IMG/VR virus record: IMGVR_UViG_3300036770_003400
DNA length: 64,000 nucleotides
Strand: one strand, 5' to 3'
DNA from: a virus
A program made the position numbers and the translations under genes. Below, piece by piece: positions 14,430 to 56,574 of the stretch. Numbering within the stretch: position 1 is the stretch's first letter; every line of letters starts with the position of its first letter. Below the pieces are notes generated by a model. It ran no database searches. It was not told where the DNA came from and worked only from the letters and a program-made list of their open reading frames with translations.

Positions 14430-14767
14430 TGCCCGCCTCCTGTGGCCTTCGCAATGGCGACGCGGGCCATTTTGATCGCCGCATTCAGTTCCTGACTGAC
14501 CAACGGGCAATTGTCCATAGCAAACTCTGCGAATTGCAGCGCCGTCAGTAGTTGCTCATTCACGGCTTGCAACCGGAGCAGTTCGGCAGCGGCTTGTTCG
14601 CCCAACTCCATGACTAGAACGCAGTCACGCAACGTCTTCAGCTGCTCCTGGTTCGCCTCATGCAACCGGCGCAGTTCGGCGGCGGCCAACGACAGGTTGT
14701 TTGTCCTGCCTTCGTGCCACGGCCATAGCACATCAGCCAGCCGCAGGGCTTCGGGTTTCTCATCCAT
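14426..14767 (-). CDS. hypothetical early protein (MDEKPEALRLAD family)
   Basis: First 41 nt identical to 50484-50524; internal AELRRL repeat. Confidence 0.65.
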   Translation of the reverse strand: MDEKPEALRLADVLWPWHEGRTNNLSLAAAELRRLHEANQEQLKTLRDCVLVMELGEQAAAELLRLQAVNEQLLTALQFAEFAMDNCPLVSQELNAAIKMARVAIAKATGGGQ

Positions 14768-15155
14768 GATTGCGCTCCTTCAGCGCGGCCTCGACGGTGC
14801 GGGCTATGTTTAGCGCAGTCGATGGCCAGCGCATATCGACGCACTCGGCGCGGGTCATCTGCATGACTTCCTCATCCGTCAGCGACTGCCACTCGCGGCG
14901 GGGTGGAGTGGTGTAGAGGAGGCTGCCTACCGTTGGAAAGGGCGCGCCAACAATGTGCTTGATGACGATGCTTTCTAAGTGTGGGACGACGATTTCCACT
15001 GTCGCCACCGGCTCCTGCTGCTGATGCCCCAGCGCGGCGCGCAGCAGGTCGCGCTGCTGGCGCAGCTCCCGGTTTCTGTCGCGTTGGCGCTGATATGCGA
15101 CCTTCAACTGGTCGTACATGTAGCGTGGCACGGTGTCGTTGTCGTCGCTCATCAC
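14760..15155 (-). CDS. hypothetical early protein (EWQSLTDEE family)
   Basis: 3' 124 nt match 50699-50822 at 121/124. Confidence 0.65.
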   Translation of the reverse strand: MMSDDNDTVPRYMYDQLKVAYQRQRDRNRELRQQRDLLRAALGHQQQEPVATVEIVVPHLESIVIKHIVGAPFPTVGSLLYTTPPRREWQSLTDEEVMQMTRAECVDMRWPSTALNIARTVEAALKERNHG

Positions 15156-20349: not shown

Positions 20350-22504
20350 GCGCATCGCCGCCGGCGAGCGCGTTTACCTCGAGGCGTGGGCCGAGGGGAT
20401 CCGGCCGGACCGCGAGTTCACGGTGAGCGAGTGGGCGGACGAGCATCGCATGCTGTCGCCGGTCTCGTCTGCCGAGCCCGGGCGGTGGCGCACGGAGCGG
20501 ACGCCCTACCTGCGCGAGATCATGGACGTGCTGTCGGCCACGCATCCGTGCACGGAGGTGACCTTCGTCAAGGGTACGCAGATCGGCGGCAGCGAGGCTG
20601 GCTACAACTGGCTCGGGGCCGTCATGCATCTGTGGCCGGGCCCGACGATGCTAGTGATGCCGACGACCGACACCGCCAAGCGGATCAGCAAGCAGCGCCT
20701 GGCGCCGATGATCGACATCTGCCCCGTGCTGCGCGACCGGGTGCAGGACAACCGCTCGCGGGACTCGGGCAACACCCTGCAGATGAAGGAATTCCCTGGC
20801 GGCGTGCTCATCTTGACCGGGGCAAACAGCGGCCCGGGCCTGCGCTCGATGCCTGTGCGCTACCTCATGCTGGACGAGGTCGACGCCTATCCCGTTGACG
20901 TGGGCGGCGAGGGGGACCCGTGCATCGTTGCGGAAAAGCGGACCGAGACCTTCGCCCGGAGGAAGATCTTTCGCGTGAGCTCGCCCAAGCTCAAGGCGAC
21001 AAGCCGCATCGAGCGGTTCTGGGAGCAGTCGGACCAGCGCCGTTATCACGTGCCGTGCCCGCATTGTGGCCACGAACAGTGGCTCAAATGGGGCCAGATG
21101 CGCTGGGAAACGCGCAAGACCTGGGAGGTCACGGCCGAAGACACGGGCGAAGTGCTCGAATGCAGCCCCGATGCGCCTGGTGCGGTCGAGCGCGACACCG
21201 GCGAGCTGGTGGACGTCCACTACGAGTGCGAGGCCTGCGAGGGCCGCATCGAGGAGTGGCACAAGCCCGACATCCTCGCGCGCGGCCGGTGGATCGCTGC
21301 ACGACCTGGTGGTGGCAGGCATCCGGGCTTTCACCTGTCCGCGCTGTACAGCCCCCTCGGCTGGTTCTCCTGGCGCTCGGCGGTCAAACAATTCCTCGAG
21401 GCCGAGGGGGACATCACCGGCGAGCTGCTGCAGGTGTTCACGAACACCGTACTCGGCGAGGCCTACGACGACGCCGGCGAGCAGGTCGACGACCAGGTGC
21501 TGAGACAGCACGTGGGCGACTACCGCGTCGGCGGGCCGGTGCCGGCCGGGGCGCTGGTGCTCACCTGCGGCGTCGACGTCCAGCACGACCGCCTCGAGGC
21601 GCGGGTCTGGGGCTGGGGGCGGGGTGAGGAATCGTGGCTGATCGCGCGCGAGGTGCTGTTTGGCGACCCCGCTGTCGACAGCACCTGGACCGCTCTGGAC
21701 GAGCTGCTGTTCCGCGGGTGGCCGCACGCCTGCGGCGGCACCTTGCGCATCAGCGCCACGGCCATCGATGCCTCCGACGGCAACACCACCCACTACGTGC
21801 GCAGCTACACACGCGCGCGCCAGGCGCGGCATGTGATCGCCATCAAGGGGCAGGCCGCACCGGGCAAGCCCATCCTCGGCCGGCCCACCGAGCAGGACAT
21901 CACGCACAAGGGCCGCGTGATGAAGGGCGCGGTCAAACTCTGGCCCGTGGGCTCCGACACGGCGAAGGGCGTGATCTACAAGCGGTACGAACTGAGCGAG
22001 CCCGGCCCCGGCTACGTGCACTTGCCCCAGGGCCTACCCGACGACGAGTTCTCGCAGATGACGGCCGAGCGCGTGGTGACGAGCTATGTGAAAGGCTTCC
22101 CGCGCCGGGCGTGGGTCAAGGCCGCAGGGGCGCGCAACGAGGCGCTGGACTGCTTCGTGATGGCCCTGGCCGCGGCGCACTATGCCGGCGTCACCCGCGC
22201 CAACTGGGACCGCATCGAGCAGGCCCTGGCCCAGCCCGACATGTGGGCCGCCCTGCCGCCGGCACCCGCTGCGCCGCCGGCCCGCGAGGCGCACCACCAC
22301 CAGGCGCACCACCACCAGGCGGAGCTTGAGCAGGCCGAGCTCCACCAGGTGGCGGCCGCCGCCGTCGAGGCGGTCGAGGCCGAGGCACCGCAGCCCGAGC
22401 TCGAGCTCGCCGCCCCAGCCGTCACGCGCGCACCCGCCGCAGCTCGCCTGCCTACACCACCGTCCGCCCCGCGACGCGGCTGGGCCACCGGCTGGCGCGC
22501 GTGA
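20312..22504 (+). CDS. terL: terminase large subunit, lambda gpA family
   Basis: TVSEWADEHR, RTPYLREIM, KGTQIGGSE, LMLDEVD, CPHCG, GVDVQ, NEALDC. Confidence 0.95.
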   Translation: MGSPTDLPLSLVERIAAGERVYLEAWAEGIRPDREFTVSEWADEHRMLSPVSSAEPGRWRTERTPYLREIMDVLSATHPCTEVTFVKGTQIGGSEAGYNWLGAVMHLWPGPTMLVMPTTDTAKRISKQRLAPMIDICPVLRDRVQDNRSRDSGNTLQMKEFPGGVLILTGANSGPGLRSMPVRYLMLDEVDAYPVDVGGEGDPCIVAEKRTETFARRKIFRVSSPKLKATSRIERFWEQSDQRRYHVPCPHCGHEQWLKWGQMRWETRKTWEVTAEDTGEVLECSPDAPGAVERDTGELVDVHYECEACEGRIEEWHKPDILARGRWIAARPGGGRHPGFHLSALYSPLGWFSWRSAVKQFLEAEGDITGELLQVFTNTVLGEAYDDAGEQVDDQVLRQHVGDYRVGGPVPAGALVLTCGVDVQHDRLEARVWGWGRGEESWLIAREVLFGDPAVDSTWTALDELLFRGWPHACGGTLRISATAIDASDGNTTHYVRSYTRARQARHVIAIKGQAAPGKPILGRPTEQDITHKGRVMKGAVKLWPVGSDTAKGVIYKRYELSEPGPGYVHLPQGLPDDEFSQMTAERVVTSYVKGFPRRAWVKAAGARNEALDCFVMALAAAHYAGVTRANWDRIEQALAQPDMWAALPPAPAAPPAREAHHHQAHHHQAELEQAELHQVAAAAVEAVEAEAPQPELELAAPAVTRAPAAARLPTPPSAPRRGWATGWRA

Positions 22505-22529
22505 ACGCCATGCAACTGCAGGGAGTTTG

Positions 22530-22566
22530 TTGACACGCGGGCCCATCGCACTAGCATTGCTAGTGC
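22530..22566 (+). promoter_or_regulatory. promoter with CI-type operator downstream of terL
   Basis: TTGACA-N16-TAGCAT; palindrome GCACTAGCATTGCTAGTGC (22548-22566) contains the AGCAnTGCT core. Confidence 0.7.
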
Positions 22567-22599
22567 CGCTCTTTTGCGGCGCACGTAGGGCAAGGCGCC

Positions 22600-23001
22600 A
22601 TGGCCATACAGCTGTCTGTCACCGTTCGCAACGCCCGGCTCGACACGATCGAGACCACCATCGGCACCTCGCCGATCCTGCGCGTGCTCACCGGCTCGAT
22701 GCCGGCCAACTGCGCCGCGGCGCAGACCGGCACCCTGGTGGCTGAGGCCACGCTGCCGAGCAACTGGCTGGCCGACGCCGCCAGCGGCAGCAAGGCCCTC
22801 GCCGGCACCTGGCAGGACCTGAGCTGCAACAACACCGGCACGGTCGGCTACTTCCGCATTCTCGACTCGACGGGCACCACCTGCCACCTGCAGGGCACCG
22901 CGGGCACCAGCGGCACCGACATGATCGTGAGCAAGGCTGCGCCGGATGCCGGCGAGTCGTTCACGGTCACGTCGTTTACGCTGACTGACGCGAATTCGTG
23001 A
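22600..23001 (+). CDS. virion structural/accessory protein
   Basis: Thr/Gly-rich beta protein of a type seen in phage head-region clusters. Confidence 0.6.
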   Translation: MAIQLSVTVRNARLDTIETTIGTSPILRVLTGSMPANCAAAQTGTLVAEATLPSNWLADAASGSKALAGTWQDLSCNNTGTVGYFRILDSTGTTCHLQGTAGTSGTDMIVSKAAPDAGESFTVTSFTLTDANS

Positions 23002-44115: not shown

Positions 44116-45914
44116 TGGCGACTTTTTATATTGACCCCACTTATCCGGTGAACGGAACGGGCACTTCGTCTGATCCGTTCAATGTCTGGCCTTCGATTGC
44201 CAGTTCAAACGTCTACCTTCAAAAGCGTGGCACCACGGCCAACACGCAAAGCGCTGCCGTAACTGCGTTTGGCCGATCAAACGTGACGATTGGCGCATAC
44301 GGCACCGGGCCGAATCCGGTCATCAACGCGGGCACTGCCATTGGGCTTCAGTGCTCTAACTCAAGCAATTTGACGATTGAGGGCGTGGATTTCGTTTCGA
44401 CGGGCAGTTACGGCGTCATCTGGGTCGGCGGCAACGGAATTTCGATCACCGATTCGACAATCGTCGGTGCGCGTTGCGGTCTCAGTATTACCAGCAGCAG
44501 CACTAGCGGTGTTGCTGGCGTCACGCTGACTCGGGTAACTGCGCGGCACACCGTTGTTGCCAACGAGCAAAGCGGGCTGTTTATGGCCGCTGCGCACGCT
44601 ACTTACAACCTTACCAACATCAAAATTATCGACTGCACGTTTTCCAACAATGCGCGGCTTGGCGCGCAAATCAAGTCCGGTGATGGCAATGTGTCAGCGC
44701 AAGTCAACGGTTTGCTGATTAAAGGTTGCGACATCAGCAACAACGCTGCTGGCGGCATTCTCATCAATACGGGCGGCACGACGTTTGCAGAAGACAAGTT
44801 TGCGACCAATGTGGTGTTTGAAGGCAACACGATAGCGAACAACCGGTTCGAGGGCGCGGCGCTGTCCATGCGCGGTGGTCGCAACCGTGTCTGTTACAAC
44901 ACCATCGAAGGGAATCAGAAATTCAGCGACACGAATCTGTCCGCCAGCGGCGGCATGTCGATTTCTGGATCAACCAACGTTGACGTATACGGCAATGTGT
45001 CGAAGAACAACGGTTCCGGCGGTCGTAATTACGACGGCGTCGGCATTTATCTGGATGTTGTGGCGTTCTTGCCTGATCTTGGAACCAATAACTCAAGAAT
45101 CTTCAACAACGTCAGCATCGGCAACAACGAATACTCGCCGGATGCCGCCGATCTCGCATCATCAATGCTGAGCGCCGGCATCGGCGTCTACAAGTCGTAC
45201 AACAATCTGATCGCCGGGAACGTGTGCATCGGCAATGGCGCTGGCGTGTGCGTCGGAGCGTGGACGAACAACAACCGTATCTACAACAACGCGCTGGTCG
45301 GCAACAAGTACGGCATCGTGCAACTGTGGAACGCCACGTCGCCGGGCAACACCATCCGCAACAACATCATTAAGGACAGCACGTCGCATGCTTTTGCTGC
45401 CCCGCCGCTTTTCACTTTCACAACGACGGGTGACATTACGCTTAGTGGTACGACCGGCACCGTAACTTGCACCAGTACCGCTGCCGATTTTCCCAACGCT
45501 TCATATTTCAATTACGCCATTATTGCGGGCAGCGGCGTTGGCTGGGTCGTGAGCAAACAGTCAAACACGCAGATCACGATAGTAATCATTAGCGCGTTTT
45601 CAGGTACCACATTCAGCAATGGCAACTGGTCGTTGTCGGCGGGTCAGGATCAAGGCGTGTGGCCGGGCTATAGCGCCCTGTTCAACAATGCCGCAGGCGC
45701 CTACGCAGGTACCGGGCAATCGTTGACGGAAGGCAGCAACAACGTTACGGCAGACCCCCGGCTATATTCCGACGGCAGTATTGCCAGCAATTCGCCGTGC
45801 GCGACGACCGGGCTTTATGCGAGCGGCATTCCGCTCGCCAACGGGCGGCTGCGTCCTGGCTTCGTGCCCATCGGCGCTTACATGGCCGTGCAACCGAGAA
45901 CCCCACGCACTTGA
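44115..45914 (+). CDS. second right-handed beta-helix tailspike/depolymerase-like protein
   Basis: TFYIDP...NGTGT..DPFN start; recurrent Asn-ladder repeats (ISNN, IANN, IEGN). Confidence 0.75.
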   Translation: MATFYIDPTYPVNGTGTSSDPFNVWPSIASSNVYLQKRGTTANTQSAAVTAFGRSNVTIGAYGTGPNPVINAGTAIGLQCSNSSNLTIEGVDFVSTGSYGVIWVGGNGISITDSTIVGARCGLSITSSSTSGVAGVTLTRVTARHTVVANEQSGLFMAAAHATYNLTNIKIIDCTFSNNARLGAQIKSGDGNVSAQVNGLLIKGCDISNNAAGGILINTGGTTFAEDKFATNVVFEGNTIANNRFEGAALSMRGGRNRVCYNTIEGNQKFSDTNLSASGGMSISGSTNVDVYGNVSKNNGSGGRNYDGVGIYLDVVAFLPDLGTNNSRIFNNVSIGNNEYSPDAADLASSMLSAGIGVYKSYNNLIAGNVCIGNGAGVCVGAWTNNNRIYNNALVGNKYGIVQLWNATSPGNTIRNNIIKDSTSHAFAAPPLFTFTTTGDITLSGTTGTVTCTSTAADFPNASYFNYAIIAGSGVGWVVSKQSNTQITIVIISAFSGTTFSNGNWSLSAGQDQGVWPGYSALFNNAAGAYAGTGQSLTEGSNNVTADPRLYSDGSIASNSPCATTGLYASGIPLANGRLRPGFVPIGAYMAVQPRTPRT

Positions 45915-49261: not shown

Positions 49262-50092
49262 TCAACGCCTGAGCAGCTTTTCTTTGATGGCCGGCGGCAC
49301 CTGTGGCAGCGGGGCCCAGGCCACGCAGTCGTCGCCCCAGTGGCCGAGGCAGGCCACGCCGCCCTCGGTCAGCAACAAGAGCTTGCGAGCAACCGGCGGC
49401 GGCTCCTCATCCGGGTCGAGCCAGTAGACGACCGGGGCGGTGATGGGATCTTTCATTCCATGGCCTCGATCATGTTGGCGGCGTAGGCGTAGTAGTTGTG
49501 CATGTTCCGCGCTTCCTCGTGCATCTCGCGCAGCATCTTGATGATCCTGGCGCGCTCAGCTGCCGCCGCCTGCCGCGCTGCCACGCAGGCATCGCGCTCG
49601 CACTGAGGGCCGCAGGAGTGGAGGTCGTCGGTCATGTAGGCGGCTCCGAATGGATCGCCAGCAGTGCTTCGTGGACCTTGGCGCTGATCTCAAGCCACAG
49701 GTCGGGCGTGACGGGCGTCTTGATCTCGACCTTCGATACCAGCTCGTCCAGGCACTCGACGCGAAAGAGCACATCAAGCGTTTCGTCAACGGCCTCGAAG
49801 ATCGTCGGGTACATGTGGATCATTTCCCCTCCGCTTTCGCAATGGCGGTGGCGTAGAAAACCGGCTCGACCTCGCGATGCACCTCAAAGCGCGCGATCTC
49901 GGGGCCGTTCTCCGTTTCGTGCAAAGCGAACTCAAGCGGCCAGTTTGCTTCCCAGCCGTCGTGCGCGTGGTGGTAATCGCCAGCGGCTTCTTGGGCTGTC
50001 CAGCGGTCAAAGTCGGCTTGCGTCGTCCTGAACACGAAAAACGACTCTTCGCAGTGGGTCAAGCATCGATACCAGACTGTTCGCATGGTCAT
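49262..50092 (-). other. four small coupled early ORFs (49262-49456, 49453-49635, 49632-49823, 49820-50092)
   Basis: ATGA overlaps; protein-like frames; function unknown. Confidence 0.6.
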
Positions 50093-50523
50093 GTGTTCCG
50101 CTCCTTCAGCGCGGCCTCAATGTGCTCTACTGACCATCCGGTAGCCTGTTCTCTTTCCTCATCCGTCAGCGACTGCCACTCACGGCGAGGCTCAAGCTGC
50201 GCATTGCGGCTGCCGCGTTCGTAACCTTCTTGGTAGGCGCGCGTCCACTCGACGGCTCGCTCGCGCTCCAGCGCCTCCAGCAGCGCCTGATTGAAAGCGC
50301 GAAAGTGCTCTATCCTTTGCTTCAGCACATCCGCCCGGTGCAGGCCAAGTTCGCTTTCGTGCGCCGTCTCCTGCACCCAGTCGGTCCTGTCCAGCCACTC
50401 TTGGGCGGCAAGCTCTTGCCGATGCAACCGGCGCAGTTCGGCGGTCGCCTGGGATTGCCACGTGATGCTGCGTTCGCAAACAGGCACATCAGCCAGCCGC
50501 AGGGCTTCGGGTTTCTCATCCAT
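50089..50523 (-). CDS. hypothetical early protein, mosaic of MDEKPEALRLAD and EWQSLTDEE modules
   Basis: Shares N- and C-terminal DNA with phage A genes 14426-15155. Confidence 0.65.
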   Translation of the reverse strand: MDEKPEALRLADVPVCERSITWQSQATAELRRLHRQELAAQEWLDRTDWVQETAHESELGLHRADVLKQRIEHFRAFNQALLEALERERAVEWTRAYQEGYERGSRNAQLEPRREWQSLTDEEREQATGWSVEHIEAALKERNT

Positions 50524-50692
50524 GGTTCTTCTCCACCGGCACATCGCGCCATTCACCGTCTTTATCGGCAACATGGTCATATTCCCACCATTGCTGAAGG
50601 ATGCGAACGGTGCGTGTGGTGTAGCAGTTGAATTCGTTTCTGAATGTCGGCTCTTCGCGCAACACAAAGCGCAGCTTGTTGGTTGGGATCAT
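50516..50692 (-). CDS. small hypothetical protein
   Basis: Coupled ORF MIPTNKLRF...ILQQWW. Confidence 0.55.
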   Translation of the reverse strand: MIPTNKLRFVLREEPTFRNEFNCYTTRTVRILQQWWEYDHVADKDGEWRDVPVEKNHG

Positions 50693-51186
50693 GTGTTTCG
50701 CTCCTTCAGCGCGGCCTCGACGGTGCGGGCTATGTTCAGCGCCGTCGATGGCCAGCGCATATCGACGCACTCGGCGCGGGTCATCTGCATGACTTCCTCC
50801 TCCGTCAGCGACTGCCACTCGCCGCGGGGCGGGGCGGTGTACAAAAAATTGCCGGCCAGTTCATCTTCTGATGACGCATCGATCCATTTGATTCGACCCC
50901 ATCGCGGGTCGCGATGGCGCATCTCGTCGTCCGTGCAAATCCACGCCACCGGCTCCTGCTCCGGGCGCTCCTTCGCCTTTGCTTCCATCGCGGCCCACCA
51001 GCCAGCGCAATAGGCGAGTTTCTCTGCCTCGGTCTGCGCCTCCCAGGGTGGCTCCGGCTGCTCCAGTGCGGCACGAAGGGCGGTGATGGTCGTCTCTGTC
51101 GCAACGGCTTCTTCGTAGTCGGTGCCGATTACAAGCCGCTCCAACGCCTCCAGCGCCTGCTGGGCGGCTTCTCGCAGTGTGGTCAT
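50689..51186 (-). CDS. hypothetical early protein (EWQSLT family)
   Basis: MTTLREAAQQALEAL...QEPVAW...EWQSLT. Confidence 0.65.
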   Translation of the reverse strand: MTTLREAAQQALEALERLVIGTDYEEAVATETTITALRAALEQPEPPWEAQTEAEKLAYCAGWWAAMEAKAKERPEQEPVAWICTDDEMRHRDPRWGRIKWIDASSEDELAGNFLYTAPPRGEWQSLTEEEVMQMTRAECVDMRWPSTALNIARTVEAALKERNT

Positions 51187-54202: not shown

Positions 54203-54494
54203 TCTGATGGTAAAAGTTGGCAGCTACACCAATGCGGCCGGCGAGCAGAAAAACCGCTGGGTCAATGTCGGTCTGGTTTTGACCACCGACGACGGCAGGG
54301 AAATGATCCTGCTGAACAGGACGTTCAACCCGGCTGGTGCGCCCCTGGATGAGAAAGGCGGGGATACCGTCCTGGTCAGCAAGTTCCCGGTGCGGGAGGG
54401 TGACGCCGAGACGCCGGCACCGAAGACGCAGAAGGCCCCTCGCCGTGGCAATGGCGGGGCGTTCGATGAACTGAAGGACGATCTTCCGTTCTAG
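54183..54494 (+). CDS. single-stranded DNA-binding protein-like
   Basis: VKVGSYT..AGE.KNRW.NVG; acidic tail DDLPF. Confidence 0.7.
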   Translation: MATKTHDLMVKVGSYTNAAGEQKNRWVNVGLVLTTDDGREMILLNRTFNPAGAPLDEKGGDTVLVSKFPVREGDAETPAPKTQKAPRRGNGGAFDELKDDLPF

Positions 54495-54496
54495 GG

Positions 54497-54671
54497 TTGT
54501 AGCTGCAGCAAAGAAGGAAGTAGACTGTACCAGCGCCGTGAGAAGCGCAAAAGGGGTGTCTGAGCAGTCTCCTCGGGGGATGGTCTCAGATGCCGTTCCA
54601 TGCCCATCACGGGCCAGATGCCCCCGGTAATTCTCACACTGGGGCCATCCGCCCGAGGAGATTGCGAGATG
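54497..54671 (+). ncRNA. structured leader / antisense-type riboregulator with own promoter
   Basis: TTGTAG-N18-TAGACT; three hairpins; 7-nt loop-loop complement; 16-nt anti-SD. Confidence 0.6.
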
Positions 54672-54890
54672 AATCAAAGACCGTTTATCGTTAACGCGTC
54701 CGTTATGGATGCGCTGAATACGTTCCAGCAGGCCTGTAATGCGCTCATAGATGCATGCATTGAGCATGAAGATCGTGAGATGACATGGGCCGGCATCAAT
54801 GCACAAAACGCTGTGCTGGATGTATTGCATGATCGAATCACCGCCACGTCGAAAAAGGACGGGGAGACTGAATCATGCCCTGCCGCCTGA
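54669..54890 (+). CDS. hypothetical protein under leader control
   Basis: GAGGAG RBS; 73 aa. Confidence 0.55.
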   Translation: MNQRPFIVNASVMDALNTFQQACNALIDACIEHEDREMTWAGINAQNAVLDVLHDRITATSKKDGETESCPAA

Positions 54891-55828
54891 TCCGCGATGA
54901 CATGCTGGAAAGCGAGCGCGTTCTCGGCCTGCCGGTCGAGGCGCGCTGGCTGTACGTTTCCATCCTTTTGACAGCCGACGACCTCGGCTGTTTCGAGGCC
55001 TCGGCATTCAGGCTGGCGAGGCGATCAGACATCCGCCGGGAGACCGTCGAGCAGCTCCTGGGAATGCTTGCCGACCAGGATCTGGTGAGGCTTTACGAGG
55101 CTTCCGGCAAGCGCTTTGGGTTCATCCCAAGGTTTCGGCAACGCATTCAGATTAAGTTCCTGAAGAACCCTCCTCCGCCCGTTGCATTGATGCAGGACGA
55201 CGAGGACGCACTGAATAAAATCAAGCAGTTAACATCAAAAACAACCGTTGGAAATCCGTTGGACAACCGTTGTCCATCTGCTGGCCAACCGTCTGAAGCG
55301 AAAGCGAAAGCGAAAGCGAAAGACAAAAGCAACGCACAGCAAGCAGAGTCGGCAAAGGAACCAGAGTCGCCGCCGGAGGAGGCAGATCGCGCCGCCAAAG
55401 TCGATGAAGACGAACCCCGACCCCAACCACAGAAACGGGAGCGCCGGGTCGAGATCGCGCTGTTGCTGCGTGAGCAGGGCGTGGCCGCAATGGCTCACCA
55501 CCCGACCGTGGTTGCCTGGGCGCAGACCGGCGTGACCGATGAGCAACTGACCGAGGCGGTCGGACTGGCGAGGTTGCGCAAACCAACGGGGTCGATCCCG
55601 GTCGGGTACCTGGAGCCTATCGTTGCCGACCTGCGCAAGCCGGCGCCGCCGGTCAAGCGATCCACTGCCGACTGGTGGACCAGTGACCGGGCGACGGATG
55701 CGAAAGCCAGGGAGCTTGGCATGCAGGCTCGGCCAGGGGAGGAGTACCCGGCTTTCCGGGCCAGGATGCGCGACGAGATCGAGCGGCGTGACCGTGCGAT
55801 GCGCGAGCAACTGGGGGCGGTGGCATGA
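54875..55828 (+). CDS. replication initiator (lambda O-like / replisome organizer)
   Basis: RLIRDDML.SE......EAR.LY..IL..ADD.G N-terminus; internal iteron-like repeats. Confidence 0.75.
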   Translation: MPCRLIRDDMLESERVLGLPVEARWLYVSILLTADDLGCFEASAFRLARRSDIRRETVEQLLGMLADQDLVRLYEASGKRFGFIPRFRQRIQIKFLKNPPPPVALMQDDEDALNKIKQLTSKTTVGNPLDNRCPSAGQPSEAKAKAKAKDKSNAQQAESAKEPESPPEEADRAAKVDEDEPRPQPQKRERRVEIALLLREQGVAAMAHHPTVVAWAQTGVTDEQLTEAVGLARLRKPTGSIPVGYLEPIVADLRKPAPPVKRSTADWWTSDRATDAKARELGMQARPGEEYPAFRARMRDEIERRDRAMREQLGAVA

Positions 55829-56574
55829 TCCACTACCACGGATTGCCGGTGACGCCCATTGAGGCGGCGATTGCAGCAGTGCGCGGCGGACACGCGTTCG
55901 TATCGTTCGCGCACCCGGAGCAGTTGGGCCTCGCGCTGGAGGTTTGCCAGACTCTGGCGCTGGACAACGGTGCGTTTTCGGCCTGGAAGGTAGGCGCCGC
56001 CCTAACGGACTGGTCGAAGTATTACGACTGGATCGGGCATATGCACCGGCTGCCGCAATTCGATTTCGCGGTGATCCCTGACGTGATCGACGGCGACGAG
56101 GAAGCCAACGACCGGCTGCTGGACGACTGGCCTTGGCGGACGGGGCGCTGGCGCCATGTCGGGGTGCCGGTCTGGCACCTGCACGAGTCTCTCGAGCGGC
56201 TGGAGCGGCTGGCGGCGAACTGGCCGCGCGTGGCACTCGGGTCAAGCGGAGCGTATGCGACGGTGGGTTCGACTTCGTGGTGGGCGAGGATGAGCGAAGC
56301 GATGGATGTGCTGTGCGACCGCGACGGCCGGCCGACGACGAAGCTGCACGGCCTGCGGATGCTGGACACGGATGTGTTTCCGTCGTTCCCGTTTTCGTCG
56401 GCGGACTCCACAAACATCGGGCGCAACGTCGGCATCGACTCCAGGTGGCGCGGAACCTACACCCCGGCCAGCAAAGCGGGGCGAGCCGCAGTGATTCGGG
56501 AGCGCATTGAGGTGGTGCAAGGCGCGACGTACTGGGTCGATGGCCCGCAACAGGACGACTGGTTGGCAGCATGA
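55825..56574 (+). CDS. tRNA-guanine-transglycosylase (TGT/DpdA)-like protein
   Basis: Motif order LDNGAFS...IPD...PVWH...ALGSS...KLHGL...SADST parallels the TGT barrel. Confidence 0.6.
   Translation: MIHYHGLPVTPIEAAIAAVRGGHAFVSFAHPEQLGLALEVCQTLALDNGAFSAWKVGAALTDWSKYYDWIGHMHRLPQFDFAVIPDVIDGDEEANDRLLDDWPWRTGRWRHVGVPVWHLHESLERLERLAANWPRVALGSSGAYATVGSTSWWARMSEAMDVLCDRDGRPTTKLHGLRMLDTDVFPSFPFSSADSTNIGRNVGIDSRWRGTYTPASKAGRAAVIRERIEVVQGATYWVDGPQQDDWLAA

Follow-up and report, generated by a model that had tools for sequence, protein, structure and literature searches.

An RNA leader with two exclusive predicted folds and covarying loop addresses before a phage replication operon

How could a phage that carries no recognizable lambda-type repressor control its replication genes, and could RNA alone do it? 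The question is raised by a short leader in the 64,000-nt stretch of viral DNA analysed here (the window; IMG/VR record IMGVR_UViG_3300036770_003400). An earlier note had read from it a two-state RNA switch on the ribosome site before a replication operon, and the promoter, the hairpins H1, H2 and H3, the complementary loops and the Shine-Dalgarno (SD) sequence GAGGAG all lie where it had placed them (Table 1). The reading of two states holds, since both folds are conserved: covariation among homologues shows that the element encodes two predicted, mutually exclusive structures, and for this structure, as for its connection with the ribosome site, the comparative evidence is good. Our analysis adds the pairing of b1 with b', a minor hairpin and the identification of a 73-aa ORF as the gated start.

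Two exclusive folds of one leader

The leader consists of four strands with swappable partners. In the ON fold, H1, H2 and H3 form and the loops of H1 (8 nt, CGTGAGAA) and H3 (AATTCTCAC) kiss; b1 takes the 5' strand of the stalk into H2, and the end of b' takes its 3' strand into H3. In the OFF fold the two stalk strands form a helix, the SD is covered by the anti-SD strand, and a' (as a bulge) and b' are exposed. The earlier note had seen 16 bp of the helix that buries the SD (54568-54583 with 54645-54661, G54651 bulged); it actually extends to 25 bp and is part of the minimum-energy fold, which combines it with H1, leaves TTCTCAC unpaired and reaches -71.1 kcal/mol (z -4.1, 0 of 200 shuffles as good). 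Because b1 ends 2-3 nt from the base of this stem and b' sits at its top, the geometry suggests that b1:b' cannot form in cis in the OFF fold.

Table 1. Features of the leader and of the operon that follows it (positions in the window).
Feature	Position	Strand	Details
Sigma70-type promoter	54497-54526	+	-35 TTGTAG 54497-54502, 18-nt spacer, -10 TAGACT 54521-54526
H1 hairpin	54533-54548	+	loop 54538-54544 is address site a1
b1, variable second address	54553-54564	+	partner 54585-54594 (H2, ON) or b'
H2	54555-54594	+	ON-state hairpin
Anti-SD strand	54565-54577	+	within H2 (ON); partner 54652-54664 (OFF)
OFF stem	54565-54589 with 54639-54664		25 bp, G54651 bulged
CI/C4-like core	54578-54654	+	77 nt, same length as annotated P1 C4 RNA; stalk 54578-54589/54639-54650; inner stem 54591-54595/54625-54629
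Minor hairpin	54602-54614	+	nested inside inner stem; 86% paired, compensatory changes
b', antisense to b1	54615-54624	+	exposed in OFF fold
H3 hairpin (ON state)	54622-54644	+	loop 54631-54637 is a'
SD strand and start codon	54652-54671	+	GAGGAG 54655-54660; start codon 54669-54671
73-aa ORF	54669-54890	+	directly gated by the switch; overlaps initiator start
Replication initiation protein	54875-55828	+	phrog_2149, E 2.6e-8
TGT-like gene, same operon	55825-56574	+	phrog_887, E 7.6e-74; overlaps initiator stop codon

The 7-nt loop match taken alone is no commoner in the window than chance predicts (5 found against 5.2), so that the case rests on conservation and covariation in homologues. Across 66 non-redundant members 98.5% of the kissing helix is paired, with double, compensatory changes in 6 of its 7 pairs; none of 500 shuffles did as well, and slid versions were 35-52% paired. 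All 20 new loci that were found with two core bases left free on both sides proved complementary. The H1 stem is 99.6% paired, again with compensatory changes, which are seen in the anti-SD strand as well, and H3 folds with a' unpaired in 65 of the 66 members. The second antisense pair, b1 (54553-54562) with b', also covaries, and b1 is highly diverse (55 distinct sequences among the 66 members). In permutation tests that ignore relatedness, cognate b1:b' pairs score -14.6 kcal/mol vs -8.9 for permuted ones and cognate b1:arm2 pairs -10.3 vs -6.9, each with 0 of 10,000 permutations as good; for the kiss, the tree shows many separate changes. H2, H3, the stalk and the anti-SD:SD helix likewise favour their cognate partners. 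All helices of the two folds do better than permuted pairings when the whole set is taken together, and the same is true inside the subfamilies, with the exception of the near-invariant and hence uninformative H3 of subfamily B. RNAalifold on a MAFFT alignment recovered H1 and the outer stem only, because the stalk is shifted between the two subfamilies, which is why helices were tested sequence by sequence.

The SD is buried in the minimum-energy fold of 66 of 66 members, and the best SD-free fold lies about 18 kcal/mol above OFF, the kiss not being counted. Growing transcripts behave differently in the prefix folds, minimum-energy folds without pseudoknot that approximate the kinetics: an SD-free fold wins as long as transcription has not reached the SD, the stalk joining the minimum-energy fold only at that stage in 51 of 66 members, and between 54658 and 54664 in the window. 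Given an OFF equilibrium, SD-free prefix folds and a barrier of about 20 kcal/mol on the direct path from ON to OFF, the ON fold is best read as a co-transcriptional, metastable state.

The family, its carriers and their genes

The exact H1 sequence occurs in at least 119 viral contigs and, among the matches listed, 72 carry TTCTCAC 78-86 nt later. Patterns that avoid both loops recovered further members with other loop sequences, one divergent subfamily came from an independent protein-seeded set and another from the final scan, and about 100 distinct family sequences were collected; a count of 104, which demanded loop complementarity by construction, serves as a size estimate only. The suspicion that this could be a new family is supported by Rfam, where neither the gathering score nor an E of up to 10 gave a relevant match for the element, and BLAST against annotated phages and plasmids gave short chance matches only. 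The family is thus absent from Rfam, and it may be one of the unmodelled candidates among the ten thousand viral RNAs of PMC10690425. Two patterns found no family member in GTDB genomes, the five matches there being rejected. A joint at 54554-54623, considered as a sign of processing, is most simply explained by other members with a different middle.

Across the family the element (54533-54671 in the window) lies 6-7 nt 3' of a conserved promoter and immediately 5' of a start codon, usually that of a replication initiator. A strict consensus scan misses the window's promoter; a promoter-like site exceeds the 95th percentile of control positions in 59 of 64 members, and its -10 box ends 6-7 nt before H1 in 57 of the 64, which would put the transcript start near 54533. 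The genes 5' of the element vary widely and are unrelated; the promoter distance is still fixed. On the other side, the start codon (TTG in 25 of the 64 members, GTG in 21, ATG in 17) stands 9-12 nt from the SD in 59. A ~50-aa ORF with a signal-peptide-like start, and a cysteine-rich tail containing the motif TCTTCC recurs 5' of the element in L002, L003, L006, L008, L018, L060, L090 and L156.

In most members the gated gene is an initiator gene, of the DUF1376 type or another, and in some it is a different gene; in six loci (L028, L050, L060, L071, L073, L079) the gated slot holds an ORF of 170-190 aa with a CxxC motif that looks HNH-like by eye. Homologues of the window's initiator directly follow the element in L007, L010 and L048. 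The gating of the replication operon, as previously proposed, stands insofar as the switch precedes the initiator and TGT-like genes; the start that it gates directly is that of the 73-aa ORF and not that of the initiator. This ORF diverges fast and has no credible PHROG or Pfam family match. In the close relatives L352 and L353 the element has been kept 99% identical; the ORF is only 30% identical to its L353 counterpart (L353:3734-3925), where the flanking genes are 85-90% identical. It is a candidate kil/icd-like or specificity protein.

The window's element is preceded by genes for a Cro-like protein, RusA and an SSB-like protein, the last ending at 54494. The window seems to be a single contig joining two phages near 22550, the first with tape measure, integrase and gpA terminase genes, the second, which carries the element, podovirus-like and with no integrase or CI found. 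At the junction (22504-22600) a lambda-type terminase has no portal after it and GC falls from about 0.70 to 0.61, pointing either to a chimeric assembly or to a co-integrate. Repeats of 75-97% identity common to the two phages (14728-14915 vs 50089-50841; 1-412 vs 45304-45715) suggest a shared host or gene exchange.

The earlier note's assumption of a phage without CI extends to other carriers of the element, as neither CI nor integrase was found in the element-bearing phage or in 35 carrier contigs: tyrosine integrase and S24 peptidase (PF00589, PF00717) were detected in 0 of these 35, of which 20 are at least 90% complete, and resolvase and ParA (PF00239, PF13614) in 0 of 24, with the positive control PF07120 in 16 of the 24. 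Among DUF1376 phages without the element, 3 of 16 near-complete genomes have a tyrosine integrase. Since most of these phages are integrase-free as well, the absence of integrase is not specific to the element, and the idea that the element replaces integrase or CI finds no support in the integrase comparison (0 of 20 vs 3 of 16 near-complete genomes, no clear difference).

Several RNA leaders occur in the DUF1376-type phage class, of which the element is one; besides the window's contig only 2 of 80 protein-picked loci carry it. The int-alpA RNA (RF02996) occupies the same slot before DUF1376 initiators in related phages, with an unrelated structure and no a/b address. Such int-alpA-like RNAs are common, many DUF1376 phages without the element having one in this slot, and they directly precede DUF1376 initiators at L286:2404-2479, L306:1423-1499, L271:228-296, L298:1522-1599 and about 20 more loci; in L007 and L020 an int-alpA-like leader lies immediately 5' of the element. 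Our models indicate that a leader able to expose or hide the ribosome site of a replication operon occurs in many uncultured phages that lack integrase and lambda-type repressor.

Address swapping and a possible action in trans

The address, carried by the loops of H1 and H3, has been exchanged repeatedly. Each of the variants GTGAGAA, GTGGAAA, GTGACAA, CTAGAAA, GTGACTG and GTCGAAA comes with a matching a', and the loops agree in 93 of 94 elements. The single mismatched-address element, L188 (429-588), may have been caught midway through a swap, or its assembly may be chimeric. On a tree that leaves out the two loops and has few columns, the alleles GTGAG and GTGGA replace each other 17 times, and supported branches force at least 11 of these changes. 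To swap, an element must change four bases in a coordinated way at sites about 95 nt apart. In three sets the elements are identical but for the address, and L358 vs L361 is a further case of this kind. Loop-loop kissing sets initiator translation in CopA/CopT and in the IncI pseudoknot, where the loop sequence defines incompatibility groups; plasmid antisense RNAs of the CopA/CopT type come from the opposite strand. In our family, unlike in these systems, both partners of the kiss lie in one transcript, so that specificity can change only through coordinated changes at two places, and a strict scan of the minus strand near the element found no promoter-like or terminator-like site. Repeated swapping is what exclusion-group specificity would produce and seems hard to explain for a purely cis guide, while recombination without selection for specificity could produce it too. 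The pattern suggests that these phages silence their kin, or avoid being silenced by them.

We think it probable that the ~140-nt promoter-plus-leader cassette is an addressed four-strand translation switch on which pre-existing OFF RNA acts in trans. According to the computed folds, b1 in a new RNA would capture the 5' stalk strand and keep the anti-SD strand inside H2; H3 would next take the 3' stalk strand, the loops of H1 and H3 could kiss, and the ribosome site would emerge free. At equilibrium the computed fold is OFF, with the SD in the 25-bp stem and a' and b' displayed unpaired. By analogy with P4 CI and seqA, pre-existing OFF RNA, full-length or as the ~77-nt core, would pair its a' and b' with a1 and b1 of new transcripts, block H2 and the kiss and thereby make the new RNA fold OFF and add to the inhibitor. 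The outcome could be a brief burst of initiator after infection followed by shut-off, that is, autoregulation; a second phage with the same address would be silenced, and a relative with a swapped address would escape. Silencing would come from the cis anti-SD strand and not from a downstream target copy. For action in trans, exclusion, immunity and a processed small RNA we argue from the known systems. The lack of lysogeny genes in the carriers weighs against exclusion, and the appearance of b1:b' in cis in prefix folds, which implies that this pair need not act in trans, would weigh against a necessary trans role.

A stronger form of this proposal, which we offer tentatively as a possibility, is that the OFF-folded leader templates OFF folding in trans, its address defining exclusion groups among non-integrating, repressor-less aquatic phages; competition between co-infecting relatives would then keep the addresses polymorphic. 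If true, such a self-propagating switch would let phages with an apparently lytic or carrier-state lifestyle control superinfection without any protein. Where natural address alleles sit on identical backbones, matched and mismatched pairs already exist, which makes RNA-only kin exclusion testable by plasmid reporters without a cultured host. The family extends RNA control in the style of C4/CI to phages in which no lysogeny genes were detected; it is also of interest as an uncatalogued structured RNA with unusually strong covariation for two exclusive folds plus a long-range kiss, and a compact, addressable and possibly self-amplifying riboregulator would be a useful part for synthetic biology.

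Could the leader instead be a kinetic timer that works purely in cis, translatable while metastable and then OFF, with a1:a' and b1:b' as folding guides only? The ON and OFF folds and their order need no second molecule, b1:b' forms in cis in several prefix folds, and there is no downstream target copy. A timer of this kind nevertheless leaves unexplained why four-base coordinated swaps occurred at least 11 times on near-identical backbones, why b1 is so diverse, and why a' and b' are displayed in the OFF fold as in C4, and we regard it as doubtful.

Relation to C4, CI and other RNAs of known phages

According to PMC2864571 (supplement 1), a' and b' in C4 systems bind a1-b1 upstream and a2-b2 at the RBS; PMC4825925 has CI pairing with seqA and seqC and acting in trans on seqA. 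The kinship in design with P4 CI and P1 C4 that had been suspected is supported by an identical P4 seqA loop and the two-site a/b design. The P4 immunity region (seqA, CI RNA/seqB, seqC) shares with our family the promoter-proximal hairpin with its loop CGTGAGAA and a following b site, the match of GTGAGAA with TTCTCAC, a nearly identical context of a', a stalked RNA in which CCGGTA precedes a bulge formed by a' and a loop presents b', and a position upstream of replication genes. It differs in having a seqC copy, a c4-a1b1 first hairpin that is absent here, a target-stalk distance of about 130 nt (~15 nt here) and an integrase, which the carriers here lack. The anti-SD:SD stem and the alternative H2/H3 fold are additions relative to P4, and the minor hairpin is nested inside the inner (b') stem, whereas the C4 cloverleaf has the order stalk, minor hairpin, b' hairpin, a' bulge. 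With P1/P7 C4 (a1 b1, c4, a2 b2, icd, ant; PMC2864571, supplement 1) the family shares the two-site design, the 77-nt core and a small gene coupled to a downstream gene. P1/P7 have a2-b2 over the RBS and control an antirepressor; here there is no a2-b2, the operon is that of the initiator and the anti-SD would act in cis.

Gifsy-1 IsrK-orf45-anrP offers another parallel in silent vs translated leader folds that are shifted by an RNA from the same locus (PMC4825925), a shift in trans that we only infer for our element. There, IsrK (a seqA homologue) takes the inactive leader to the active state in trans, and the polarity here might be the same, a 5' fragment with H1 and b1 activating OFF transcripts. 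The leader is OFF by default and its a' and b' are exposed toeholds, but no terminator or U-run follows b1 to yield such an activating 5' RNA and the isrK and c4-a1b1 models give no match, so that this polarity is unlikely.

The family could also be an ordinary C4/CI cassette too diverged for Rfam, with an RNase P-matured small RNA blocking a downstream a2-b2, which would agree with the a1 loop identical to that of P4, the similar context of a' and the complementarity of the a1 loop and b1 to a' and b', which C4/CI requires and covariation shows here. The 77-nt core followed by purine-C-C would likewise suggest RNase P maturation: after the stalk the core ends in bulged purine 54651 and CC, with a purine in 62 of 64 members, CC in 63 of 64 and a variable next base. 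The CC also pairs within the stem, however, and in two divergent subfamilies TTCC and ACT replace purine-C-C with the pairing kept. The Rfam models C4 (RF01695), c4-2, c4-a1b1 (RF03163) and isrK (RF01394) matched neither the window nor any of 13 homologous loci, even with E relaxed to 10, whereas the C4 models match the P1 and P4 controls (69-75 bits); our own family model does not match the P1 or P4 C4 RNAs. The silencing of a downstream kil/icd-type RBS in the manner of C4/CI, which the earlier note had invoked, is not supported, as an a2-b2 (seqC) copy is missing family-wide: an a-core occurs in the next 400 nt of 4 of 64 members, against a background of 7.8%, and P1 and P4 carry theirs within 30 nt. 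One a2-b2-like site inside the window's small ORF (54774-54797) is within background and is not conserved in L352/L353. Temperate or prophage residence, another mark of C4/CI, was seen neither in the carriers nor in the GTDB genomes examined. We consider such a cassette very improbable; the family resembles C4/CI in its upstream half and is not a member of the C4/CI family. That the locus is a DNA-level element (an origin hairpin or mobile cassette end) is scarcely credible, for although it adjoins the initiator gene and travels as a cassette, the genes upstream of it being unrelated from carrier to carrier, G-U pairs are numerous in it, its strand polarity is strict and its distances to promoter and start codon are fixed.

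A third type of C4-like leader turned up at L109:2924-3058 (minus strand), at L303 around 2235-2372 and possibly in L314, with no Rfam match at gathering score. It has an a1 hairpin, b1 and a stalk with b' in its loop; a' comes next, followed by a further hairpin and, to close, a U-run, so that it may be a terminator-type variant.
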